A DNA stretch of 64,000 nt, from NCBI GenBank assembly GCA_964356545.1, contig CAYHHX010000001.1, positions 1,918 to 65,917 on the forward strand, written 5' to 3'. Positions within the stretch are counted from its first letter, which is position 1; each line of letters opens with the position of its first letter. The position numbers and the translations under genes were made by a program. The notes beneath the pieces are model-generated. The model ran no database searches. It was not told the DNA's origin and saw nothing but the letters and a program-made list of their open reading frames with translations. The DNA comes from an uncultured Candidatus Saccharibacteria bacterium (GTDB lineage Bacteria; Patescibacteriota; Minisyncoccia; Minisyncoccales; Staskawiczbacteraceae). Below, piece after piece: positions 7,737-55,475 of the stretch.

Positions 7737-8184
7737 ATCTTAACAAGATGAGTGATTGCTCTTTATTAAATTGAGGAGAGGAAAGTCCGAACACCATCCT
7801 GAACTGATTTATCAGTGAAGGATAAAATAGTAGTGGCTAACAGCCATCCATAGTAATATGCGAGGTGCGAACAGTGACGCCGAGTTTCGAAAGAAACAAG
7901 GCACCGAGTATATAAATTTATTTATGTGCGAGGTGAATTCAACTGAAAAGTTGAAGTGAAACGGCTAAATCCTTATTGGGTGCAAGAACAAAGTCCCGCC
8001 CCCTAAGCAGTTAATTTTTATCAGGAAAAACCTGAGAGAGCTCTAATAGATATATTTTTTTGAGTTCTTGAATTACAGCATAGGGGGCGGGATTAAAAGT
8101 AGTTCGCTTGAATCAAGAAGTAATTCTTGGTCTAGACAGATAATCACATAAAACAGAATTCGGCTTACGGTCTTGTTAAGATAA
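7737..8184 (+). ncRNA. rnpB: RNase P RNA, bacterial type A.
   Basis: P4 strands 'GAGGAAAGTCCGaACac' (~7783) and 'ACAGAAttCGGCTTAcGG' (~8153). The P1 helix is formed by 7737-7748 'atcttaacaaga' pairing with 8171-8182 'tcttgttaagat'. Confidence 0.85.
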
Positions 8185-14935: not shown

Positions 14936-15081
14936 CTGAACTCGTTTGATTGGTAGGAGGGCTTTTGTCCTTATTATCTCCGTTTTCAAACACTTATCAA
15001 ATGTGAGCGGCAGTAATGCCGTCTTTTTTGAAAATATTGATTATTTTATTGATAGATGGTACCATAAATAAAGTAAAGGTA

Positions 15082-15222
15082 ATGGAAATAAGAAAACAGA
15101 TTTTTATTTATAAAAATTCAAAGGTTGAAAATTTAATGTTTCAAGTTTTTTCTATTATTTATCATAAATATCACGAGAAAAGTTTTTCTCTTTTAAAAAA
15201 TATTTCTGGAAGTTTTATTTAA
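15082..15222 (+). CDS. Conserved small protein (46 aa). Divergent copy A of a four-member repeated unit.
   Basis: Aligns codon by codon with the copies at 44364, 49220 and 54666 (I-R/E-K/R-Q-I-F/Y...KNSKV...MF...FS...KY-H/Q-EKS-F/L-SL...IS...F-I). The differences are mostly synonymous or conservative (GAG/GAA, AAA/AAG, TTT/TTC). SD 'aaagg' upstream. Confidence 0.5.
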   Translation: MEIRKQIFIYKNSKVENLMFQVFSIIYHKYHEKSFSLLKNISGSFI

Positions 15223-15252
15223 AAATACACCCATTAGTGGGTGTATTTTTTT
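15223..15252 (+). terminator. Intrinsic terminator of repeated unit A.
   Basis: 'atacacccattagtgggtgtat' hairpin plus T7. The same hairpin, with compensatory loop changes, ends all four units. Confidence 0.7.
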
Positions 15253-15270
15253 GGGGACATCTTAGAAAAC

Positions 15271-15288
15271 GGTGGCTGTTCTCATTTC
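15271..15288. repeat. REP element (reverse orientation, partial).
   Basis: 'ggtggctgttctcatttc' matches the family consensus AATGGTGGCTGTCCCCATTTCC. Confidence 0.5.
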
Positions 15289-15354
15289 TGCCCCCCCAAC
15301 AAATTAACTTTATTTTGAAATATTATTTAATAATCAATATAATCAAAGTTGAGT

Positions 15355-18300
15355 ATGAATAAAATAAAAAACAATTTTCATAAAAATAAATTAGCATTCA
15401 GTAAAAAAGTGACGGCATATTTATTGATTGCATTATTTTTCTATTTTCCCTTAGAGTCGGTTTTTGCAGAAGAAAATATATCAGAAAATATAAACAAAGA
15501 AGAAACTTCGGCAAGCCAACTAGTCGATTCCGAAAAAAATAATCAAGAGAAACCTCTAGCAGAAAAAAATATTATCGGGGATACTAAAAATAATATTCAA
15601 CAAAAAGGTGAGCGTAAAAATAACGAGAAAGAAGATAATACAGACAAAAAAGAACGCAACAAGAAAAAGAAAAATGATTCGGATGATGAAGAATTAATCC
15701 AAGCGCAAGCTGCGGGTTCATCTTCAGGTTCATCTAATAATAATCAGTTTGCGTTTAACCCGGCCGCAAAGATAATGATGCCAGAAGCCGATACCACCAC
15801 CGGCGCGCTGGTGTATTCTTATCCTATCGAAGTGCCGTCGGGCAGAAATGGCATGGCTCCGAAAGTTTCACTGTATTATAATTCTCAGAAAAATGACAAT
15901 GCTTCAATAGTAGGATTTGGCTGGGATTTGGACATTCCCAAAATAGAAAGGGTTAACAAGCACGGAGTTAATAAATTATATGATTACCAAGATTTCCAAT
16001 CTTCGCTTTCCGGCGAGTTGGTGAATGTTTCCGGAAATGATTATGGCGCAAAAATAGAAAATGGTTCTTTTCTGAAATACCAATTAAATAATGAGATATG
16101 GACTACCACGGATAAAAAAGGCACTATTTACAAGTTTGGAAGTTCTAACTCATCAAAAATTTATAATTTATCAGATACAAGCAAAATTTACTCTTGGTAC
16201 TTAGATGAAATTATAGACACTAATGGAAATTTCATAAAATATACTTATATAAAAGATAATACTGATAATTTTTTGTACCCTGATAAAATAATTTATACAG
16301 GCAACGGAGAACTATCGGGGATTTTTTCAGTTGAATTTAAAAAAGAATCCAGGCCGGATTCCTATACAATCAATAACGCCGGTTTTTATCAAAAAATAGA
16401 TGAAAGAATTAATTCCATAGAAACATATATAGCCGGTAATTTAAACAGAAAGTATGATTTAACATACGGAATGGGAGACAACGGGAAGCGTTCTATGTTA
16501 GAAAAAATAACTGAAAGCGGGAGAGACAATCTTGGCATTACCGCCACCTTGCCATCTTTTGACATTGCCTATACCGAAGGAAATATTGGCTTGGCAGATG
16601 CTCCGTCAATCAGTTATCCGTGGGTTACAGAAACCGATTCAAATGGAAATTCTTATACAACGCCTTTTACATTAGCCGATCAATCTATCAGGATCATAGA
16701 TATAAACGGCGATGGGTTAAAAGATATTGTTAAGTCGTCTGTTGCCTACGGGCAATGGGGAGCTATGTATCCAAATTTTTGGGTTTTAAAAAATAATGGG
16801 TCAGGGTGGGTAGTGGATAATTCATGGAGTCAACCAACATATTCTTATGTTAACGGTAGCGGAAGAACAATAAGCGAATATTTTACTTTTTCAAACGCAA
16901 TTGACGTTGGAGATTGGAATGGCGACGGCAAAGATGATTTGATTAAATTTTGGGTTGAAAATTTAGGCGGCGGAGCAAATAAACAACATGCAGTTGTTTT
17001 GTTAAATACTGGTGCAGGTTGGACACAAAATACAAATATAGAAACAGATACGCCGACCTATATGAGTTATAATGCCGGTATACAGAATTTATACCTTTAC
17101 TCTGGCTCAAGTGGCTCTAGTCGTTTCATTGATCTTAATGGCGATGGATTGATTGACTGTATCAATGCTTGGAACCATCAAATAAATGGCATTAATTATC
17201 CATCTTTTGCAGTATTATATAACGATGGTGAAGATTTAAAATGGGATCCTACAGTGCTTCAACTATATTTTAAGAATAGTCCAACTTCAGCAAGTAGTCC
17301 GCTTGCGTTAACTAACAGCATAAAAATATTAGATATTAACGGCGACGGACTTGTTGATTTTATGTCCGCTCATAATTACCAAATAAACGGTATTGATAAC
17401 CCATCATTTTGGGTGCTAATAAACAATGGGCATGGCTGGGACCAGGATTTTGGTATAACACATCCCCGATACACTGCTCTTGATGTGAATGATAACCTAC
17501 AAACAAATTACTTTAGCAGCACTTCGGGGTGGCAAGTTGTTGATATAAACGCAGACAATTTACCTGATTTTATTATATTTGCGCCACTTAATAGCGGAGG
17601 CGGAACATATAAAAAAAGGAAAACAGTTTTAATAAATACTGGCAAGGGATGGATCCAAGATGACAGTTTGATTAATATTGGGGACTATTCGTATACATAT
17701 AACGGCAGCACACAAACTAATTATCCTAGTTCCAGCGATGCCGGCAGCGCTTTTCTTGATATTAACGGCGATGGGTTGGTTGATATTGCTCACCCATCTT
17801 TTTATCAGCAACAGGGAATTTACTATACTATTAATTGGACGCTTATAGGAAGCGGTAAAATTGCCAACACTTTGTCAAAGATAACATTACCTGAAGGTGG
17901 CTCTTATGACATTGCATATAAAATGACAAGCGCATATAGGGATGTTTTGGGAAATTTACTGAATAGTAGTTTACTATTAGCATATAATACGGTTGAAAAA
18001 ATAATTCAAAATGATGGCAATGGCATAACGCATATTGCAAATTACAAATATGAGGGAGGACATTTTTTCTATGGTAGTGCTTTTAATAAGCGTTTTGCGG
18101 GATTTAGTATAATTTACAAAAACGATTTTGCGGGCAATACAACCAAAACTTATTATCATACAGCCAATCAAAGCGATTCTAATTACGGAGAATTTCAAGA
18201 CGAATATTGGAAAATTGGTAAAGCATATAGTATAGAACAATATGATAATGCAAACCACTTATATACTAAAACTATAAACAAATGGGACAGTTTTGATTTA

Positions 18301-21300
18301 GGTGGTGGTTCAAAGTTTTTAAAGTTAGCTCAAACCGTAAATTATAATTTTGATGGCGATGCCACTCATCGAGATACAGCTGAAGGTTATACTTACGACA
18401 ATTCCAATGGTAATGTCACCCAGAAAGTTCAATGGGGCGAAGTGTCGGGGCAAGACAATGGAACATTTACTGATACTGGATCTGACAAATTTACCACTGA
18501 CTACGCTTATGCCTCCAATGCAAGCTTATCTATTGTTGGATTGCCATCAAAAGAAACGATAACAGATCAAAACTCGTTGAAGGTAAAGGAAAGCAAGTTT
18601 TATTACGATCTGCAGGCCTTAGGTAGTATTATTCAAGGGAACCTTACCAAAAAAGAGGATTGGAAAGTTGGTACTGCTTATATTAATAACCAAACAACTT
18701 ATAACAGCTACGGCTTGGCAACCGTTTCAACAGATCCGCGAGGCAAAACCACCAAGTATGTGTATGATGCTCATAATCTCTATCCTGCCACAGTAACCAA
18801 TGCCAAAAATCAATCCACTAACTATTTGTATAACTATGCTTTAGGGAAAATGACCCAGAAGACCGATCCAAGTAAAAGGGTATTTCAGTATGTCTACGAT
18901 GGATTGGGGCGTCTCATTGAAGAAAAACAACCGGATATTGCAACACCTTCAACATTAATAACAAAGGCAATCTATGTGTATACCGACACTCCAAACGCAG
19001 TAAGTGTTAAAAAATCCAGTTATTTGGACGCATTAAATTTTGCAGAATCATACACGTATTTTGATGGTTTAGGCAGAAAAATTCAGGAAAGGCAGGAGGC
19101 CGAGGGTACAGTTTTTGCCGTAAAAGATTATATCTACAATAATTTGGGTCTGATTACAAAAGAATCTCTACCTTATTTTTCAGCAAATTTGTCTAAGACT
19201 TCGCCAACCATTGATTCTGCGCTCTATATCAATTACAAATATGATGCCCTGGGCCGTGTAGTTTCTGTAACCAATGCAGTTGGCACTACCACAAATATGT
19301 ACAATGATTGGAAGCTTACGGTAATCGATGTAGGTGGTAAGTCTAAAGATTTATATAAAAATGCTTATGGCAGTTTAGTGCAGGTTGATGAGCATAACTC
19401 CCTTGATACATATAGCACATTGTATAACTACAACTATTTAGGAAACATTACTAAGATTACTGATGCGCTTTCTAATATCCGTAAATTTACTTATGATGGT
19501 TTGGGCCGTAGGTTAACCGCAGAAGATTTGCATGTATCATCAGATACAAGTTATGGTATCTGGACATATACCTATGACAATGCAGGTAACTTGACCCAAA
19601 CACTAGATCCAAATGGCCAAAAAGTAATCTACACTTACGACAACCTTAATCGTGTTCTCAAAGAGGACTATATTGGCGTTACTGGTACAGAGGCTACCTA
19701 TGCCTATGATGCTGGAACAGACGGCATTGGTAAATTAACCAATGTTATTAATAGCTCAATTACTAAAAACTATACCTACAATGCTTTGGGTTTATTGAAA
19801 AAAGAAACAGATAAGTTTGGCCTTACTATCTACATCACGACATATAGTTACGATAGGCAAGGCAACCAGACTACAGTTACCAATCCAGATAATTCTAAGG
19901 TGCAATATATTTACAACACAGCAGGCTTGCTTGACCAGGTCAAACGCAAGGAATCCATTGATAGCGCGTTTGTTAGTGTTGTCAATAATTTTGATTATTC
20001 TCCCGAGGGCAAAGTTACTATTCAGGAAAACTATAACGGAACAACGAACACTAATACGTATGATGTTGCCAAGCTCTACCGATTAACTAGTAAAGTTGCC
20101 ACCACTGCTAACGGAGACCGCATCCAGGATTTAAGCTACACATATGATTTAGTAGGTAATATCACTAAAATTGTAGATGCGTCCACCACTGCAACCGCCA
20201 AAACTTCCGACTACACATATGATGACCTCTATCGTTTAACCTCTGTAACTGTAACAGGCGTTGCTGTTGGCCAAGAGCCATACATTCAAACGTATAGTTA
20301 TGATGCAATAGGAAATATCATTACAAAATCGGATGTTGTTGGATCTTATATATATGACGGTACTATCTACGCCAATCCCCATGCAGTCACTATCATTGGT
20401 TCTGCAACTTTTTCGTACGATAACAATGGCAATCTGTTAAACTCTACCAGCGGTTTTATTAATACATGGGACTATAAGAATCGTTTAATACAATCAGTCA
20501 AAGAAACAATAACAAACAGCTACGGATATGATGCCGAAGGCCAAAGAGTAAAATTAATTACCGCCGATAAAAACACTTATTATCCAACTAAATCCTATAA
20601 CATTACTTTTCTAAATTCTGATACCCAAAACCCAACATCTATTACAAAGCACATCTTTGCAAACAGCATAGACATTGCTACAATAGAAGGCACAGGGGCA
20701 ACTTCTCAAATCTACTACGCATCCAAGGATTTACTGAACAGCTCTAGCATCATAACCGACAGTGTTGGCGTAATTGCTGAGACTATGGATTACTTCCCAT
20801 TCGGCGGAATCAGAATAGACCAAAAAGTCACTGGCAGCTCTTTCTCGGAACAACGTAAATTCATCGGCCAGGAATACGACCAAGACACAGGCCTAAACTA
20901 TCTTAATGCGAGATACTACAACGCAACTATTGGAAGGTTCATTTCCCAAGACCCAATGTTTTGGCAACTGCCAAATGAGCTACTCGCCGACCCGCAACAA
21001 TTGAATTCCTATTCCTACGCCCGCAATAACCCGATAATAGGTAGTGACCCGAGCGGGTTATTAACCGTCATTGTTCCTGGAACCAGCTATAATTCAAAAG
21101 ATTGGTCGTCTTCTGGCTCGATGTCAAATTTTATCTCTTCAGTTGGCAAGACCTTCAATGAAACACATCAAACAAGTGTGATAAACGATAAAAGTAATTG
21201 GTCGGGTGGCGATAATTCTAATGCTCGTCAAAAAGCAGCAGAACATATCACAGGGTTTATAAAAGACTATAAGTTTGCTGATGGAGAACAGTTAAACATT

Positions 21301-21729
21301 GTTGGACATAGCCATGGCGGAAATATTGGAATTCTTGTTAGTCAAAAAACAGAAAGAAAAATAGATAATCTTGTAACTCTTGGTACTCCAGCTAGAAGCG
21401 ATTACCAACCAAATTATGATATGGTGGGACGTCACATAAATGCATACAGTAATGTAGATATGATACAGGGAGGCGGAGGTGGACAAACAAATTTATCTGC
21501 AGTGCTTCTTGGGACTGTTGGTAATGCTTTTGGTATTCCTGGAGCAATTATTGGATATGCGCTTGGTAATATATTAGGCTGGGGAGAATTTGGTTCTGCC
21601 GGTAGAAAATTTAGTGGAGCGGAAAACATTAGTGTAACTAAAGAAGCTGGTCGTTTTAGTCCCTTTAGTTCTCATTCTAATTTATTGCAAAGTAGCGTTT
21701 GGTCAAGGGTTGATAAATTAATTAAGTAG
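15355..21729 (+). CDS. Giant secreted polymorphic toxin: signal peptide, SpvB-like domain, FG-GAP/VCBS-like repeats, RHS/YD repeats, RHS core (DPxGL), and a C-terminal alpha/beta-hydrolase (lipase/esterase-like) toxin domain.
   Basis: Signal peptide 'KKVTAYLLIALFFYFPLESVFA'. SpvB-like 'GMAPKVSLYYNSQ...IVGFGWDLDIPKIER'. Repeated 'DINGDGLxD' / 'DWNGDGKDD' motifs. Numerous YD repeats ('YTYDxxGNL', 'YxYDxLxRL'). RHS core 'RYYNATIGRFISQDP...NSYSYARNNPIIGSDPSGLL'. The C-terminus carries 'IVGHSHGGNI' (a GHSxG nucleophile elbow). ATG 15355 is preferred over the TTG at 15349. Confidence 0.85.
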   Translation: MNKIKNNFHKNKLAFSKKVTAYLLIALFFYFPLESVFAEENISENINKEETSASQLVDSEKNNQEKPLAEKNIIGDTKNNIQQKGERKNNEKEDNTDKKERNKKKKNDSDDEELIQAQAAGSSSGSSNNNQFAFNPAAKIMMPEADTTTGALVYSYPIEVPSGRNGMAPKVSLYYNSQKNDNASIVGFGWDLDIPKIERVNKHGVNKLYDYQDFQSSLSGELVNVSGNDYGAKIENGSFLKYQLNNEIWTTTDKKGTIYKFGSSNSSKIYNLSDTSKIYSWYLDEIIDTNGNFIKYTYIKDNTDNFLYPDKIIYTGNGELSGIFSVEFKKESRPDSYTINNAGFYQKIDERINSIETYIAGNLNRKYDLTYGMGDNGKRSMLEKITESGRDNLGITATLPSFDIAYTEGNIGLADAPSISYPWVTETDSNGNSYTTPFTLADQSIRIIDINGDGLKDIVKSSVAYGQWGAMYPNFWVLKNNGSGWVVDNSWSQPTYSYVNGSGRTISEYFTFSNAIDVGDWNGDGKDDLIKFWVENLGGGANKQHAVVLLNTGAGWTQNTNIETDTPTYMSYNAGIQNLYLYSGSSGSSRFIDLNGDGLIDCINAWNHQINGINYPSFAVLYNDGEDLKWDPTVLQLYFKNSPTSASSPLALTNSIKILDINGDGLVDFMSAHNYQINGIDNPSFWVLINNGHGWDQDFGITHPRYTALDVNDNLQTNYFSSTSGWQVVDINADNLPDFIIFAPLNSGGGTYKKRKTVLINTGKGWIQDDSLINIGDYSYTYNGSTQTNYPSSSDAGSAFLDINGDGLVDIAHPSFYQQQGIYYTINWTLIGSGKIANTLSKITLPEGGSYDIAYKMTSAYRDVLGNLLNSSLLLAYNTVEKIIQNDGNGITHIANYKYEGGHFFYGSAFNKRFAGFSIIYKNDFAGNTTKTYYHTANQSDSNYGEFQDEYWKIGKAYSIEQYDNANHLYTKTINKWDSFDLGGGSKFLKLAQTVNYNFDGDATHRDTAEGYTYDNSNGNVTQKVQWGEVSGQDNGTFTDTGSDKFTTDYAYASNASLSIVGLPSKETITDQNSLKVKESKFYYDLQALGSIIQGNLTKKEDWKVGTAYINNQTTYNSYGLATVSTDPRGKTTKYVYDAHNLYPATVTNAKNQSTNYLYNYALGKMTQKTDPSKRVFQYVYDGLGRLIEEKQPDIATPSTLITKAIYVYTDTPNAVSVKKSSYLDALNFAESYTYFDGLGRKIQERQEAEGTVFAVKDYIYNNLGLITKESLPYFSANLSKTSPTIDSALYINYKYDALGRVVSVTNAVGTTTNMYNDWKLTVIDVGGKSKDLYKNAYGSLVQVDEHNSLDTYSTLYNYNYLGNITKITDALSNIRKFTYDGLGRRLTAEDLHVSSDTSYGIWTYTYDNAGNLTQTLDPNGQKVIYTYDNLNRVLKEDYIGVTGTEATYAYDAGTDGIGKLTNVINSSITKNYTYNALGLLKKETDKFGLTIYITTYSYDRQGNQTTVTNPDNSKVQYIYNTAGLLDQVKRKESIDSAFVSVVNNFDYSPEGKVTIQENYNGTTNTNTYDVAKLYRLTSKVATTANGDRIQDLSYTYDLVGNITKIVDASTTATAKTSDYTYDDLYRLTSVTVTGVAVGQEPYIQTYSYDAIGNIITKSDVVGSYIYDGTIYANPHAVTIIGSATFSYDNNGNLLNSTSGFINTWDYKNRLIQSVKETITNSYGYDAEGQRVKLITADKNTYYPTKSYNITFLNSDTQNPTSITKHIFANSIDIATIEGTGATSQIYYASKDLLNSSSIITDSVGVIAETMDYFPFGGIRIDQKVTGSSFSEQRKFIGQEYDQDTGLNYLNARYYNATIGRFISQDPMFWQLPNELLADPQQLNSYSYARNNPIIGSDPSGLLTVIVPGTSYNSKDWSSSGSMSNFISSVGKTFNETHQTSVINDKSNWSGGDNSNARQKAAEHITGFIKDYKFADGEQLNIVGHSHGGNIGILVSQKTERKIDNLVTLGTPARSDYQPNYDMVGRHINAYSNVDMIQGGGGGQTNLSAVLLGTVGNAFGIPGAIIGYALGNILGWGEFGSAGRKFSGAENISVTKEAGRFSPFSSHSNLLQSSVWSRVDKLIK

Positions 21730-21741
21730 TTCAATAAAAGT

Positions 21742-22020
21742 ATGAAATTTAGGTTTATAATAATTTTAATTTTTTCCTTCATATCCATATTTCTTGTTAG
21801 CGACTTGATTAAGGTTGCAAATTCATACGAAATTTCTCTTGGTTACTTCCTATTTGTAGTGCCTGTCAATGCTATTTTAATAGTCATATCTTTTATTGCT
21901 AAGAGAGAGGATATAGGTTGGGAGAAAAAAATAGCGGTTTTAGGAATTGTTGTTGCCTTTGTCAGTTTGCTATTAGGTGGTCTTACAACAGCATATCGTT
22001 TAATTAGTTATTATTTATAA
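21742..22020 (+). CDS. Small multi-pass membrane protein, a candidate immunity protein for the RHS toxin.
   Basis: 92 aa with three hydrophobic helices. It starts 13 nt after the toxin stop, which is the classic toxin-immunity placement. Confidence 0.45.
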   Translation: MKFRFIIILIFSFISIFLVSDLIKVANSYEISLGYFLFVVPVNAILIVISFIAKREDIGWEKKIAVLGIVVAFVSLLLGGLTTAYRLISYYL

Positions 22021-22032
22021 TGTTGCTTCAAG

Positions 22033-22072
22033 GGGGAAATAGGTACAGCCACTATTCTTTGTGATATGATAT
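22033..22072. repeat. REP element with a 3' extension 'tttgtgatatgatat', placed immediately 5' of the RAYT genes.
   Basis: 'gggggaaataggtacagccactattctttgtgatatgatatca'. The same extension follows the REP at 37693-37733. Confidence 0.6.
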
Positions 22073-22081
22073 CATAGTTCT

Positions 22082-22390
22082 ATGCCGAGGGTTCATAGAG
22101 TTGATATTAAAGAAGAGATATACCATATCATCAATCGCGCCAACGCACGGTTGCCGATTTTTTTTAACGAAGAAGATTATGTGCTATTTGAATTGATATT
22201 TGAGCAGGCGAAAGAAAGATTTGATATGCGTATCTTAGCATATTGCTTAATGCCAAATCATTTTCACTTGGTGTTGTGGCCAAAAGAAGATGACGACCTC
22301 CAAAAATTTATGCAATGGATTACCTTAACCCACACCCAGCGTTGTAAATGGGGTCAGCCACCATTTAATAATAAGTATGGTATACTGTAA
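22082..22390 (+). pseudogene. Truncated IS200/IS605-like HuH tyrosine transposase (RAYT, 5' fragment), cut by a REP insertion.
   Basis: Shares 'IYHIINRANARLPIF...YCLMPNHFHLVLWPKEDDDLQKFMQW' with the intact downstream copy but stops after 102 aa. The disrupted codons run through the REP 'aaatggggtcagccaccattt' (22346-22366). Confidence 0.65.
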
Positions 22391-22392
22391 GT

Positions 22393-23067
22393 ATGCCAAG
22401 AACAACAAGAACAGATGTTGCGCAAGAAATATACCATGTATTGAACAGAGCTAATGCCAGAGTGCAGATTTTTGATGACGATAAAGATTATCTAGATTTC
22501 GAAAAAATATTACAAGAAGCAGTAGAAAAGTTTAATATGGGGCTATTGGCGTATTGTATTATGCCGAACCACTGGCATTTAGTCCTGCATCCAAAACAAG
22601 ACGGCGATCTTGCTAAATTCATGGGATGGCTTTCAAATACCCATACGCGAAGATGGCATACCCAAAAGGGAACCATTGGACAAGGACATCTTTATCAGGG
22701 AAGATACAAGTCATTTTTATGCCAGCAAGATGATCATTTTATTACATTAGTTTTATATGTTGAGCGCAATGCAAAAAAGGCTGACTTGTGTAAGTTAGCT
22801 CAGGATTGGAAGTGGTCTAGCATTTGGCGAAGGGAGAGTGGATTGGCAGAGCAGACTGCGATTTTAGAGAAATGGCCGATTGATATGCCAAAAAATTATT
22901 TATCACTAGTTAATCAAAATCAAGACGCGAACGAAGAAGAAAGAATTGAAAAAGCCATTGATAAAAGTAATCCATATGGAGATACTCATTGGATTCAGAA
23001 AGTAGTTAAAAAGTTTGGTCTTGAGCAAACATTAAGAAGGGTGGGGAGGCCAAAGAATGGTGGCTGA
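22393..23067 (+). mobile_element. REP-associated tyrosine transposase (RAYT, IS200-like Y1 HuH transposase), apparently intact.
   Basis: HuH motif 'MPNHWHLVLHP' and catalytic-Tyr region 'GHLYQGRYKSF'. Its 3' end abuts the REP 'gaatggtggctgaccctaatttcc' (23056-23078). REPs of the same family are spread through the window. Confidence 0.75.
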
Positions 23068-23078
23068 CCCTAATTTCC
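23056..23078. repeat. REP element (reverse orientation) at the 3' end of the RAYT gene.
   Basis: 'aatggtggctgaccctaatttcc'. Confidence 0.6.
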
Positions 23079-23338
23079 ATAACGATTTCATCGATGAAAC
23101 TATTTTTTACTTTTTCCCGATAATTTTTACTACTGTGGTTTCAGTATATTTTTTTACCAAAAAGAAAAAAACCATTGTTGTATTAATGATTATTGCTGGA
23201 GTGCTTTATTATTTATGGATATTATTTGGGGTTCTTTGGACGGCAGGAGAAGGTTGTTTCCCTTTATTTTATGGATTAATAAAACCTTCTTGCTAACTAA
23301 GAAAAGAAACAGAGGGAAGTATTAGTGCATTATCTTCT

Positions 23339-23677
23339 ATGGTCCAAAATGTCAAAGATAAAGTAAATTCATTTTTTTTGAAAAAAAATAACATGAAAAA
23401 ACTATTTATTTTTAGTGTTGGATTAGTTTTAGGTTTCTTCTTTGAGTTTTTGAACCTTACAGAATTTTATAGTATTTTTTTACCAAAAAACTATGTAAAT
23501 GCTAATTCTTCATTATTTCTTTTTGTATATCCATTATTAATCATAATAGTAATTGTTGCTTTTATGATATTTATAAAAAATTATCCTTGGATGTGGTTAA
23601 TGATTGGATTTTTTAGCGGTTTTTTATTATGTATCATGGGTTTTATGGCTCTATTAGGTCTAGGCGGAGGAGTTTGA
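23339..23677 (+). CDS. Hypothetical membrane protein.
   Basis: Hydrophobic helices ('LFIFSVGLVLGFFFEFL', 'LLIIIVIVAFMIFI', 'MWLMIGFFSGFLLCIMGFMALLGLG'). The start could instead be the Met at ~23393. Confidence 0.35.
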   Translation: MVQNVKDKVNSFFLKKNNMKKLFIFSVGLVLGFFFEFLNLTEFYSIFLPKNYVNANSSLFLFVYPLLIIIVIVAFMIFIKNYPWMWLMIGFFSGFLLCIMGFMALLGLGGGV

Positions 23678-23713
23678 TAAAATTAATTGATAAATAAATA
23701 ATAAATTAAAGTT

Positions 23714-24397
23714 ATGAAAAAATATGTATATAGTTTGTTAGGGTTAATTGTTTTATTTAGTTTTTTAATTACAGCCTTACCAATAGAAGCAGCTAAAAAT
23801 CAAAAACTAAAATCAGTTATTAGAGACAACTTTAATAAATACACAAACGGCAGCATTGTTGGGCAAGACGGATGGTTTAATAGAGCAAATGGGTTGCCTT
23901 ATGTTGTTCAAAATATTGTGGTAAAAAAAGGTAAAAAAGCTCTTTATAATAACAATACGGGAGCGGACAGTGTTATTACTAAAACCAGCAGCACTGCGTT
24001 GCCAAATGGCAAGCAATCCTTTTGGATTAGAACAGAAAATAGGTCTGGTTGGGGAAATTACAATATAGGCGAAAATTTCCAATTAGGTCTTTTCCAAGGC
24101 TCTTGGGATGGGTCATCAAGAGCAACACTTGCTTTTATGAAGGATGGGTATGTAGCTATTCTTGATACAGCTACTGACAAGTATGTTAATTTTGACACCT
24201 ACACTGATAATCGTTGGACGTTGATTCAAGCAGAATGGCGTATGTCAGATAAAACAATAAGGTGGCGAGTAAATGAAAGGGTATGGACTAATTGGACACC
24301 TTTTGTAGGCAGCACCTCCTTTACTGGTTTTGACACAGTAGGATTTGTTACTTTTTATCTTGGTTCTGGTGGGGTTTATATTGATGACTTACGTTAA
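23714..24397 (+). CDS. Secreted hypothetical protein (signal peptide plus a likely beta-rich domain).
   Basis: Signal peptide 'MKKYVYSLLGLIVLFSFLITALPIEAAK'. W/G/T-rich mature region. Followed by a REP and a terminator. Confidence 0.5.
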   Translation: MKKYVYSLLGLIVLFSFLITALPIEAAKNQKLKSVIRDNFNKYTNGSIVGQDGWFNRANGLPYVVQNIVVKKGKKALYNNNTGADSVITKTSSTALPNGKQSFWIRTENRSGWGNYNIGENFQLGLFQGSWDGSSRATLAFMKDGYVAILDTATDKYVNFDTYTDNRWTLIQAEWRMSDKTIRWRVNERVWTNWTPFVGSTSFTGFDTVGFVTFYLGSGGVYIDDLR

Positions 24398-44029: not shown

Positions 44030-44363
44030 CACATTGGTTTGCGTAAAGGCGAATGATTTTATAGGAGTAACTCGTAGTTACTCCTTTTTATTTTCTGAAT
44101 TTATCACTATTCTTTCCTACTTTTCTTTGTCCGGAGATGAAAAAAAATGTCATTAATCAGTTAGTTACCCAGTACGAAAGAACTTTTGGCAAAGCACCCC
44201 ATGAATTATGCAAAGAGGTTGTCCAAGATTTAATAGCAGAAATGCCCCCAGAAGAAATTCCTTCAAGTTTAAAGTAAGTACTATTTAGTACACCAGTGGC
44301 CATAGTGTTGTTTTTTTGAAAAAACTGTTGATTGTTTTACTAACAGGTGGTATTATTAGCATA

Positions 44364-44513
44364 ATGAAGACAATAGAAAGAGGTAAGCAGATTTATATGC
44401 ATAAAAATTCAAAGGTTGGAATTTCAATGTTCCGCGCTTTTTCTAGTGTTCCTGATAAATATCAGGAAAAGAGTCTTTCTCTTTCAAAAAGTATTTCTGA
44501 AAATTTTATTTAA
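44364..44513 (+). CDS. Conserved small protein (49 aa), copy B of the repeated unit.
   Basis: Near-identical to copies C and D. Promoter TTGATT-N17-TATTAT lies directly upstream, giving a leaderless or near-leaderless start. Terminator at 44514-44543. Confidence 0.5.
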   Translation: MKTIERGKQIYMHKNSKVGISMFRAFSSVPDKYQEKSLSLSKSISENFI

Positions 44514-44543
44514 AAATACACTCATTAGCGGGTGTATTTTTTT
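44514..44543 (+). terminator. Intrinsic terminator of unit B.
   Basis: 'aatacactcattagcgggtgtattttttt'. Confidence 0.7.
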
Positions 44544-44545
44544 AA

Positions 44546-44620
44546 AAATTATGCATTTTGGAGAACATTTAACAATCGATGGATACGGTGGTAACTTTGA
44601 AAAGCTAAATGATGAAGAAT
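44546..44620 (+). pseudogene. 5' fragment of a pyruvoyl-dependent S-adenosylmethionine decarboxylase-like gene (speH/speD-like), truncated by a REP.
   Basis: 'MHFGEHLTIDGYGGNFEKLNDEE' matches the AdoMetDC N-terminus pattern G-x-H-L-x-x-D/E-x-Y-G-C/G-x-F-x-K-L-N-D. The frame then runs into the REP at 44617-44650. Confidence 0.45.
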
Positions 44621-49120: not shown

Positions 49121-49183
49121 ATTTAATATTTTTTATTTGAATAAAATAATTAAGTGGCTATAGTGTTGTTTTTTTAAAAACTG

Positions 49184-49212
49184 TTGATTGTTTTATTGAC
49201 AGGTGGTATTAT
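49184..49212 (+). promoter_or_regulatory. Promoter of repeated unit C (TTGATT-N17-TATTAT). The same arrangement is present in units B and D.
   Basis: TTGATT 49184-49189, 17-nt spacer, TATTAT 49207-49212. The ATG at 49220 sits ~7 nt downstream, so the transcript would be leaderless. Confidence 0.5.
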
Positions 49213-49219
49213 TAGCACG

Positions 49220-49369
49220 ATGAAGACAATAGAAAGAGGTAAGCAGATTTATACGCATAAAAATTCAAAGGTTGGAATTTCAATGTTCCGCGCTTTTTCT
49301 AGTGTTCCTGATAAATATCAGGAAAAGAGTCTTTCTCTTTCAAAAAGTATTTCTGAAAATTTTACTTAA
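49220..49369 (+). CDS. Conserved small protein (49 aa), copy C. Identical to copy D.
   Basis: MKTIERGKQIYTHKNSKVGISMFRAFSSVPDKYQEKSLSLSKSISENFT. See copies A and B for the selection argument. Confidence 0.5.
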   Translation: MKTIERGKQIYTHKNSKVGISMFRAFSSVPDKYQEKSLSLSKSISENFT

Positions 49370-49398
49370 AAATACACCAATTAGCAGGTGTATTTTTT
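49369..49398 (+). terminator. Intrinsic terminator of unit C.
   Basis: 'aatacaccaattagcaggtgtatttttt'. The stem is preserved relative to units A and B despite loop changes. Confidence 0.7.
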
Positions 49399-49415
49399 GA
49401 TTAAGTTAATGATTA

Positions 49416-54555: not shown

Positions 54556-54665
54556 GACAATAAAATAGAAACAGAAATAAAATCTATTTTGAAATTAAGT
54601 GGCTTACCGTCGCTTTTTTTTAAAAACTGTTGATTGTTTTATTGACAGGTGGTATTATTAGCACG

Positions 54666-54815
54666 ATGAAGACAATAGAAAGAGGTAAGCAGATTTATAC
54701 GCATAAAAATTCAAAGGTTGGAATTTCAATGTTCCGCGCTTTTTCTAGTGTTCCTGATAAATATCAGGAAAAGAGTCTTTCTCTTTCAAAAAGTATTTCT
54801 GAAAATTTTACTTAA
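54666..54815 (+). CDS. Conserved small protein (49 aa), copy D.
   Basis: Identical to copy C, including the promoter (54630-54658). Terminator at 54815-54846. Confidence 0.5.
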   Translation: MKTIERGKQIYTHKNSKVGISMFRAFSSVPDKYQEKSLSLSKSISENFT

Positions 54816-54857
54816 AAATACACCAATTAGCAGGTGTATTTTTTGATTAAGTTAATG

Positions 54858-55475
54858 ATTGATTTTACAGATTCAAAATCGGTAATTGGGCTCATCGCAG
54901 GCATTATTGCTTTTACGGCTTATATTATCTATATAATTTCAATATTAAAAGGCAGAACCAAGCCAAATAGGTCAACTTGGTGGATTTGGTCGTTTATGGG
55001 ATTGGTGGTTGGACTAAGTTATTATTTATCAGGCGCCGTTAATACTATTTGGGTTCCAGTAGTTGAGTTTATAGGGCCATTATCTATTGCACTATTGTCT
55101 GTAAAATATGGAGAAGGGAAGTTGAGCGATAAAACAGACTTAATTTGTCTCGTTGGCGCGGTTTTGAGTGTAATTTTATGGATAATATTTAATAATCCTG
55201 TTATTGCTTTAGTAACCAATTTAGCGGCCGATTCATTTGCTATTGTTCCTACTATTAAAAAATCATATTTACGACCAGAAGGAGAAGATTTTTGGGCATG
55301 GCTTGGCACAGGCACCGCCGACAGTTTGAATTTCTTTGCTGTTGAAAGATTTTCCTTTGCGATTCTTATTTATCCGATTTATATGCTCGTTTCAGACCTT
55401 ATTATAGTTATAGTATTATTAATGAAGAAAAAAGATATTATGAAAGATACTAGTTTTCTTAGAAAAAAAATATGA
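54858..55475 (+). CDS. Hypothetical multi-pass membrane protein whose start codon lies inside the 3' end of repeated unit D.
   Basis: The ATG at 54858 is the same 'gttaATGatt' that precedes the AdoMetDC-like fragment in unit C. About six hydrophobic helices. Confidence 0.45.
   Translation: MDFTDSKSVIGLIAGIIAFTAYIIYIISILKGRTKPNRSTWWIWSFMGLVVGLSYYLSGAVNTIWVPVVEFIGPLSIALLSVKYGEGKLSDKTDLICLVGAVLSVILWIIFNNPVIALVTNLAADSFAIVPTIKKSYLRPEGEDFWAWLGTGTADSLNFFAVERFSFAILIYPIYMLVSDLIIVIVLLMKKKDIMKDTSFLRKKI

Follow-up and report, generated by a model that had tools for sequence, protein, structure and literature searches.

A predicted two-gene polymorphic toxin-immunity module with a lipase-like tip in a Patescibacteria bacterium

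In this study we analyzed a gene pair located at positions 15349 to 22020 of a 64,000-nucleotide (nt) stretch, in the following called the window, of contig CAYHHX010000001.1 from an uncultured Candidatus Saccharibacteria bacterium (GCA_964356545.1, positions 1,918 to 65,917 of the forward strand). The first gene encodes a large RHS protein and the second a very small membrane protein. We consider it probable that the two genes form a polymorphic toxin-immunity module in a Patescibacteria (Candidate Phyla Radiation, CPR) bacterium, which consists of an exported cocoon, a lipase-like C-terminal tip and a membrane-located immunity protein.

Toxin architecture, tip and membrane partner

The features of the gene pair, in window coordinates and with positions in the toxin given in amino acids (aa), are the following:

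15349..21729, plus strand: toxin gene, TcB/TcC-type RHS polymorphic toxin, 2126 aa from TTG 15349
15349..15468, plus strand: signal-peptide-like N-terminus (aa 1-40) with basic n-region, hydrophobic core and predicted cleavage at VFA/EE
15469..15795, plus strand: low-complexity linker rich in N, K, E, S and D (aa 41-149, about 100 aa), assigned by composition
15796..16698, plus strand: SpvB-type domain (aa 150 to about 450), with which the TcB-like shell begins, assigned by Pfam SpvB, PDB sequence matches and the model
16699..17838, plus strand: FG-GAP/integrin-like beta-propeller (aa 451 to about 830, approximate boundaries) with six D-x-N-G-D motifs
17839..20790, plus strand: RHS/YD-repeat shell (aa about 831-1814), assigned by RHS_repeat, YD_repeat and PDB matches
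20791..21063, plus strand: Rhs-associated core, putative aspartyl autoprotease plug (aa 1815-1905), assigned by TIGR03696 and ending DPSGL/L
21064..21726, plus strand: toxin tip (aa 1906-2126, 221 aa), predicted minimal alpha/beta-hydrolase, lipase-like
21310-21312, 21457-21459 and 21673-21675, plus strand: predicted triad Ser1988, Asp2037 and His2109, from conservation and model
21742..22020, plus strand: three-helix membrane protein of 92 aa, predicted cognate immunity protein, 12 nt past the toxin stop

The domain order and the landmarks listed in the initial annotation of this locus were all recovered by profile scans and motif positions, with minor corrections. One of these concerns the start codon, as the annotated length of 2126 aa is obtained from TTG 15349, whereas the ATG at 15355, which had been named as the start and is also used by public gene calls, yields 2124 aa. 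Judged from hydropathy alone, the N-terminus looks like a Sec signal peptide with a hydrophobic core of 15 residues (aa 21-35, Kyte-Doolittle 1.4-1.8) followed by SVFA/EE with small residues at -3 and -1. Pfam and NCBIfam scans found no PAAR, prePAAR, VgrG or VgrG-binding module in the toxin, and together with the signal-peptide-like N-terminus this is in line with the earlier proposal of export by Sec rather than by a type VI secretion system (T6SS). The SpvB domain is matched by Pfam with 6e-22 over aa 150-235 and by YenB and TcdB1 over aa 151-238 in a sequence search of the PDB, and the string 'IVGFGWDLDIPKIER' begins at aa 187 within this region. It is followed by five DxNxDxLxD motifs of the DINGDGLxD type (aa 451, 595, 662, 732 and 804), which together with DWNGD at aa 522 make up the about six repeats counted initially. 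Pfam FG-GAP exceeds its cut-off (8.8e-06, 25.9 bits versus 22.1) and FG-GAP_3 falls slightly short of it (1.1e-05, 26.4 bits versus 26.9). The shell is covered by nine stretches of RHS_repeat (PF05593, 5e-40) and by YD_repeat (TIGR01643, 9e-24), contains 13 YxYD motifs and matches the sequences of Rhs 7q97 (2e-23), TcdB2-TccC3 (2.5e-17) and Rhs 8h8a in the PDB. Rhs_assc_core (TIGR03696) was found with 8e-19 over aa 1815-1904, and the DPSGLL motif occupies aa 1900-1905.

For the N-terminal half, a segment of 861 aa (aa 140-1000) was modeled from an alignment with 29 relatives; SpvB, FG-GAP_3 and TcdB_toxin_midN are present in most of them. In this model (predicted local distance difference test, pLDDT, 79.9; predicted TM-score, pTM, 0.83) the propeller region consists of all-beta repeating blades. 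A Foldseek comparison with the PDB returned TcdB2, TcdB1 and YenB as the top 13 matches (E values 4e-33 to 2e-27, query TM-score, TMq, 0.59-0.66), whereas T6SS Rhs proteins and teneurins reached a TMq of only 0.08-0.17 (about 0.15 for T6SS Rhs). As Foldseek favours TcB chains over T6SS Rhs proteins and teneurins, a TcB-like N-terminal half is structurally supported. The Pfam scan gave no match at E<=0.1 in the toxin for TcdB_toxin_midN (PF12256) or midC (PF12255), and because relatives carry PF12256 (e.g., 2e-26 in locus L008) the midN region is probably divergent rather than absent. At the other end, the C-terminal shell and the core align to TccC3 and YenC2. A residue alignment to TcdB2-TccC3 places Asp1868 (SQDP) and Asp1900 (DPSGL) on Asp651 and Asp674 of TccC3, and the PDB entries 6h6f and 6sue name D651A as an autoprotease mutant. 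Since both catalytic aspartates of TccC3 are conserved, the core is expected to cleave the chain after DPSGL. The N-terminal fold match and the C-terminal core alignment agree with the initial suggestion that TcB-like and TcC-like halves are joined in one polypeptide.

The family call for the tip is weak from sequence profiles alone and is settled by structure and conservation. The AlphaFold model of the tip shows an alpha/beta-hydrolase fold with a pLDDT of 89.4. The motif IVGHSHGGNI starts at aa 1984, and its G-H-S1988-H-G part connects strand 93-99 with helix 101-112 in the tip model, which corresponds to the nucleophile elbow. Asp2037 follows the next-but-one strand (138-145) and His2109 the last one (204-207), and this is the canonical order of alpha/beta-hydrolases. 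Invariant across 30 aligned tips are Gly1911-Thr1912, which are predicted to be the oxyanion-type site, as well as His1987, Ser1988, Gly1989, Gly1990, Asp2006, Asp2037 and His2109. The closest PDB folds in Foldseek are LipA of Bacillus subtilis, LipA of Bacillus pumilus and Lip_vut1 (E values of about 1e-5). Placement of the triad was judged from the secondary structure of the model and from a profile alignment to LipA (the sequence used is identical to 1i6w), in which GHS1988HG falls on AHS77MG and YSNVD2037MI on YSSAD133MI. A hydrophobic, Gly-rich hairpin of two helices (aa about 2049-2076) between Asp and His varies in length and is missing in some relatives. The Pfam scan found no match to DUF2235 (Tox-ABhydrolase-1/Tle1) at E<=0.1. 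The lipase-type hydrolase proposed initially is thus supported by a modeled hydrolase fold with the serine at the nucleophile elbow. We regard the tip as a putative lipase-like serine esterase, with lipase as a best guess within the serine esterases.

The 92-aa protein contains three hydrophobic segments and matched no Pfam, NCBIfam or PADLOC family. Its assignment comes from its linkage to the tip. A degenerate-pattern scan with one genome per species gave 79 tip loci (individual loci and proteins of our collection are given as L and P numbers), and for each of them the enclosing and the next open reading frame (ORF) were located. In the close Patescibacteria clade the ORF after the tip is nearly always a three-helix protein, mostly of 90-117 aa, and these partner ORFs start at most about 13 nt past the toxin stop or overlap the toxin end. 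In about 12 further non-redundant Patescibacteria loci, this tip is directly followed by a homologue of the partner, so that the downstream gene, initially proposed as a plausible immunity partner, is not missing from every other locus with this tip. Two of these loci were tested prospectively and scored against a hidden Markov model (HMM) built without them: in L086 (P0006) and L087 (P0008) a partner homologue was found directly after the tip with 1e-13 and 1e-20, and one of the two genes had been overlooked by the public gene caller.

An HMM of the partner was built from tip-adjacent ORFs and searched against 5000 ORFs from 1.06 Mb of fetched loci. All 14 significant matches lie after a tip, 11 of them directly adjacent, and the remaining three comprise one gene in L005, which follows an orphan tip remnant, and two additional tandem copies in L062. 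As the seeds of this HMM were picked by position, the search was repeated with the 92-aa protein of the window alone, which recovered L003 (4e-16), L062 (2e-11), L002 twice (4e-11 and 7e-9) and weaker members, with zero matches away from a tip among the 5000 ORFs. In this family a Pro of helix 2 is invariant, and there are Ser and Gly residues that are nearly so. It follows full-length toxins, mini forms of 300 aa and start-less orphan tips alike, and RHS cores with different tips precede unrelated genes such as a 100-aa soluble protein (L001 7411-8791) or Barstar (L086). The partner tracks the tip rather than the scaffold, which is the pattern defining a cognate immunity gene in polymorphic toxin systems. 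Therefore, the 92-aa protein most likely protects the producer from the tip, as far as this can be read from sequence and gene order. Recognition of the Gly-rich hairpin by the partner was considered and rejected, because the hairpin-less tips P0006/L086 and P0008/L087 still have an immunity homologue downstream.

Relatives, exchange of the tip and genomic surroundings

Identical proteins are encoded on contigs from Hainich groundwater 0.1-um samples, and in NCBI the neighbouring LepA carries the name 'Patescibacteria group bacterium'. A word-index search with the tip yielded 37 relatives at E<=1e-3; all organism-named ones belong to Patescibacteria and many are attached to Rhs cores. The whole SpvB-propeller-RHS-tip architecture is seen again in Uhrbacteria and Saccharibacteria (L005, L008, L010), and in Acidobacteria the same tip is found on a 1700-aa RHS protein without SpvB. 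An exhaustive search of 1.84 billion representatives with a profile of the tip and the adjacent RHS core gave 396 clusters at E<=1e-30 from Patescibacteria, Acidobacteriota and other phyla, and in the best 150 of these 396 clusters the match sits at the C-terminal end or close to it. Members of the partner family were recovered from Patescibacteria only. With no curated Pfam or NCBIfam model reaching its threshold, the tip appears to be an unnamed family of its own, and the same applies to the 92-aa partner.

The tip is exchanged among different scaffolds, which include SpvB-type RHS proteins in CPR, the SpvB-less RHS protein in Acidobacteria, mini forms of 300 aa and orphan fragments, and neighbouring RHS cores bear different tips. 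The tip and immunity genes act as a cassette: the pair is also present on further RHS scaffolds, in orphan form and with short proteins that have a signal peptide. Further orphan tips, cores or immunity genes were not detected in the window by tblastn or HMM. Several loci elsewhere contain more than one module: L002 38-3799 (Ryanbacteria) carries three tandem modules of core remnant and tip, two of them with the membrane partner next; in L005 8709-9533 the remnant of an orphan tip, accompanied by an immunity gene of its own, is located behind a full-length Uhrbacteria toxin; L062 328-1978 contains three tandem immunity paralogues; and in L086 10-2297 an unrelated toxin fragment and Barstar lie immediately upstream.

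The short proteins, here called mini-RHS, have 170-450 aa and start with their own signal peptide, followed by the end of the Rhs core (AF(S/T)EQRKFIGQEYD...DPxGLL) or about 100 aa of shell strands and then by the tip. They have no cocoon and account for 27 of the 164 family representatives (e.g., P0001-P0006, P0008, P0014, P0018, P0025, P0103, P0125 and P0128; genes at L087 1439-2341, L086 1061-1993, L001 7411-8487 and L004 7494-8696). As classical orphan rhs-CT fragments lack a start and secretion signals, mini-RHS proteins may be independently secreted toxins in which the core is retained as a handle for recombination. In phyla other than Patescibacteria, this tip precedes proteins of 143-204 aa with 4-5 hydrophobic helices (L012, L013, L015, L019-L023, L025, L034) or secreted proteins of about 180-250 aa sharing 'RLGVRSALV..SQAVDEYPVWSP' (L017, L035, L037, L039, L045, L046, L050). 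These genes may be alternative immunity families for tip subclades.

Besides the gene pair, the following features were found in its direct vicinity:

15022..15267, no strand assigned: one of four copies in the window of a dispersed 246-nt repeat (family D1), sharing 74% identity with the reference, context
15269..15288, minus strand: degenerate REP-like element upstream of the toxin, 4 mismatches to GAAATGGGGACAGCCACTAT
15315..15343, plus strand: promoter-like site TTGAAA-17-TATAAT (11/12) from a consensus scan, 5-11 nt before the start codon
22036..22055, plus strand: REP-like element between the immunity and RAYT genes, 2 mismatches to the consensus
22082..22390, plus strand: truncated RAYT-like Y1 transposase, 102 aa (Pfam Y1_Tnp 4e-12, REP_Tyr_transpos 4e-11)
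22393..23067, plus strand: full-length RAYT-like Y1 transposase, 224 aa (Pfam Y1_Tnp 1.4e-18, REP_Tyr_transpos 2.7e-16)

The 246-nt repeat copy contains a spurious-looking ORF of 68 aa (15016..15222) without a Pfam match. The other copies (44313-44558, 49169-49414 and 54615-54860) are mutually 91-100% identical, and at two sites the homology runs on into the following sequence (family D5). The 20-nt REP-like (repetitive extragenic palindromic) motif GAAATGGGGACAGCCACTAT is present in 10 copies at <=3 mismatches in the window versus 0 expected (22036-22055, 22345-22364, 37695, 41426, 42913, 44619, 49098, 54534, 59639 and 63497); for the degenerate element at 15269-15288, none of 2000 shuffles of the 560-nt region gave an equally good match. 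Both RAYT-like (REP-associated tyrosine transposase) ORFs exceed the Pfam cut-off for Y1_Tnp, and REP_Tyr_transpos is their best NCBIfam match with 42.9 and 59.8 bits versus a cut-off of 80. A REP-like copy (22345-22364) inside the 3' end of the 102-aa ORF suggests that the first RAYT copy is disrupted, and the last part of the intact gene (23003-23057) recurs at 63433-63487. The promoter-like site is a consensus match alone. The number of these sites in the region does not exceed that expected from shuffling. Its short distance to the toxin start would imply a leaderless or nearly leaderless mRNA.

Upstream of the locus are genes for MurJ, LepA, two tRNAs, inorganic pyrophosphatase and a NUDIX protein, and RpiB is encoded downstream. 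The GC content of the locus is 0.36-0.38 compared to 0.33-0.35 in the flanks. A horizontal-transfer island was considered and rejected, because the GC content does not stand out, the neighbouring genes have housekeeping functions and the REP copies are dispersed over the whole window. The initial description of a locus embedded in mobile DNA is correct for the flanking repeat, REP element and RAYT pair, and overstated for the toxin itself, since repeat elements scattered through the whole window say little about the mobility of the toxin locus. Past the RAYT pair (23057-24397) there are genes for two multi-helix membrane proteins of 79 and 112 aa and a secreted protein of 227 aa, and none of these three had a match in Pfam, NCBIfam, PADLOC or to the immunity HMM. 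A role in anti-phage defence was rejected, as PADLOC gave no matches for the tip, the 92-aa protein or the small proteins downstream. At 7740-8183 a bacterial class A RNase P RNA scores 100.1 bits against a gathering threshold of 100 bits; this region has a raised GC content and overlapping spurious ORFs on both strands.

Proposed mode of action and competing explanations

We assume that the toxin is exported by Sec via its N-terminal signal peptide and that it folds or self-assembles outside the cell into a closed BC-type cocoon. According to the model and the fold match, the SpvB-like domain and the six-bladed FG-GAP propeller would form the TcB-like end of this cocoon; the RHS/YD repeats would build its shell and the Rhs core would plug the opposite end. 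The core would then cut after DPSGL by means of the conserved residues Asp1868 and Asp1900, and the tip of about 24 kDa would stay enclosed after the cut. In the most economical mechanism, the hydrolase would be released at the membrane of a neighbouring cell, where it would most likely hydrolyse membrane-lipid esters at the outer face of the cytoplasmic membrane; acting from outside, it may not have to cross the target membrane. The presumably co-transcribed 92-aa protein, linked to the tip as described above, would neutralize the enzyme in the membrane of the producer, and immunity residing in the membrane suits an enzyme that works at the outer face of the membrane.

Several points weigh against this proposal. 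Every Pfam and NCBIfam alpha/beta-hydrolase match of the tip is below its curated cut-off (Pfam bits with cut-off in brackets: Abhydrolase_1 24.3 (25.8), PGAP1 20.7 (24.3), Palm_thioest 21.2 (26.8)), and the triad His lies outside the profile alignment to LipA. The predicted external segments of the 92-aa protein comprise only about 12 aa and 8 aa, and it is not obvious how so little external surface blocks a soluble enzyme. A reverse search with the 92-aa protein in a word index of 5.8 billion proteins found only the protein itself, which is uninformative because short membrane proteins have few exact 5-mers in common. Furthermore, activity, substrate, autoproteolysis, secretion and protection are predictions and not biochemistry, and the proposal has to account for the opening of a closed TcB/TcC cocoon without a TcA partner.

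The first alternative concerns the substrate and leaves the rest of the module unchanged. Instead of a lipase, the tip could be another serine esterase or a thioesterase that acts on O-acetyl or D-alanyl esters of wall polymers, on lipoprotein acyl chains or in a deacylation similar to GPI (glycosylphosphatidylinositol)/PGAP1. The subthreshold profiles named above include PGAP1 and Palm_thioest, and the closest folds are those of LipA enzymes; we regard this alternative as unlikely, albeit as the one to be taken most seriously.

A second possibility extends the function of the module: the caged lipase might also harvest membrane lipids of the host for lipid-auxotrophic Patescibacteria. Patescibacteria lack lipid biosynthesis, the mechanisms of lipid uptake and breakdown are reported as unidentified, and lysolipids derived from neighbours are a suspected lipid source (PMC11665869, PMC7242380); secreted phospholipases have been proposed for such an acquisition (PMC8080830). 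In such a scenario, the Sec-exported, TcA-independent BC cocoon would dock on the host and release a phospholipase-type enzyme, which would yield lysolipids and fatty acids of the kind presumably scavenged by CPR cells, and the small partner would shield the epibiont's own borrowed membrane. The exchangeable tips, the orphan cassettes and the occurrence of the same tip in free-living Acidobacteriota make ordinary interbacterial antagonism the likelier function, and we consider lipid harvest doubtful.

It is even less probable that the 92-aa protein is not an immunity protein but an accessory factor, i.e., a membrane anchor, a helper in export or release, or a receptor for cocoon docking. Its very small predicted extracellular surface and the missing homology to known immunity families would be compatible with such a role. 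However, the partner tracks the tip and not the RHS scaffold or the signal peptide, and the extra tandem copies (L062 1339-1635 and 1661-1978; L005 9249-9533 after the tip remnant) are typical of immunity arrays and unexpected for an export helper.

Least probable of all is a BC component of a true three-part ABC/Tc toxin with TcA encoded elsewhere in the genome and the interior of a eukaryotic or host cell as target: the N-terminal half is structurally TcB, including the propeller that docks TcA in the Photorhabdus and Yersinia toxins, and the inspection covered 64 kb of the genome, but the window holds no ORF of more than 603 aa besides the toxin, no TcA-like gene was found in 10 kb upstream of a Peregrinibacteria relative or in the flanks available for the relatives from Uhrbacteria and Saccharibacteria, the tight linkage of an immunity gene and the occurrence of orphan cassettes are characteristic of polymorphic toxins used between bacteria, and many SpvB-propeller-RHS toxins have been described as a separate trafficking class (Zhang et al., 2012, PMC3482391).

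Relation to known systems

The architecture described here is already known, and alpha/beta-hydrolase tips as well as RHS toxins of CPR bacteria have been reported before; thus, the toxin-immunity module is not a new type of system and leaves the current understanding of polymorphic toxins unchanged. New in this case appear to be the specific tip family, its small polytopic partner and the record of this class in several lineages of the CPR. Within the CPR, the locus illustrates a TcA-less BC-type RHS toxin cleanly and in full, and two families, the tip and the three-helix partner, can now be annotated. With S1988, D2037 and H2109 it offers a catalytic triad open to testing. It is also a tractable system for the delivery of cargo from a closed RHS cocoon without TcA or T6SS and for the question of how a very small polytopic protein guards against a membrane-active hydrolase. 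In addition, the toxin may be one of the secreted lipolytic activities that have been suggested to serve CPR bacteria in the exploitation of hosts.

WapA of B. subtilis is likewise a Sec-exported RHS toxin with a polymorphic tip and an adjacent immunity gene. It is not known to contain the TcB-like module of SpvB and beta-propeller, and its characterized tips are nucleases (tRNases). Similarly, for WapA of Streptococcus suis a Sec signal peptide, RHS repeats, a polymorphic toxin and adjacent immunity without a T6SS are described (PMC12704120). An RHS toxin located next to an immunity gene has already been noted in a Saccharibacterium (PMC6031116). A literature search joining SpvB, FG-GAP, RHS and TcA returned nothing.

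With respect to the enzyme, LipA of B. subtilis, of the family I.4 'minimal alpha/beta-hydrolase' lipases (1i6w, 6nkc), is a free secreted enzyme with an AHSMG elbow, whereas the tip has GHSHG, is located behind an Rhs core and contains the Gly-rich helical hairpin of variable length inserted between Asp and His. Lipase-like tips with cognate immunity are known as Tox-ABhydrolase-1/2/3 (PMC3482391). They share with the T6SS Tle effectors and the toxin of the window that alpha/beta-hydrolases are used in interbacterial conflict, each with an immunity protein. The T6SS Tle effectors differ in their delivery, as delivery of the toxin of the window is predicted not to involve a T6SS. The immunity proteins of Tox-ABhydrolase-2/3 are soluble (SUKH, Imm66, Imm69; PMC3482391), and by description the polytopic membrane partner is set apart from them. 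Among the named Tox/Imm families that could be checked, neither the tip nor the three-helix partner is found. A precedent for a lipase toxin of a monoderm that is neutralized by a membrane protein is the TslM/TilM pair of Staphylococcus aureus. TslA/TilA and TslM/TilM belong to a type VII secretion system (T7SS), in which secreted Ser-Asp-His lipase toxins hit membrane phospholipids from outside (PMC13560087). In contrast to the toxin described here, TslA and TslM use the T7SS route with an LXG-like domain and have no RHS cocoon, and TilM spans the membrane once and carries a folded extracellular DUF1433 domain, for which the 92-aa protein has no counterpart. No sequence relationship between the Tsl/Til pairs and the pair in the window was detected.

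With respect to the scaffold, the toxin shares the SpvB-type domain, FG-GAP propeller, RHS shell, two-Asp DPxGL core and variable tip with the BC cocoons of TcdB2-TccC3 and YenB-YenC2. It differs from these Photorhabdus and Yersinia proteins as a single polypeptide with a Sec-type signal peptide. It also differs from ABC/Tc toxins in that no TcA gene is nearby and TcdB_toxin_midN was detected in relatives only. Moreover, its cargo is a predicted hydrolase with an immunity gene and not an ADP-ribosyltransferase directed against eukaryotes, and its host is a monoderm-like CPR bacterium. The closest correspondence is found with the 'TcdB/TcaC' class of Zhang, Aravind et al. (2012, PMC3482391), which combines a signal peptide, SpvB and an integrin-like propeller, RHS and a variable toxin. 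CPR/Patescibacteria are missing from the lineage list of 2012 for this class. Its domain order is exactly that of the toxin in the window.

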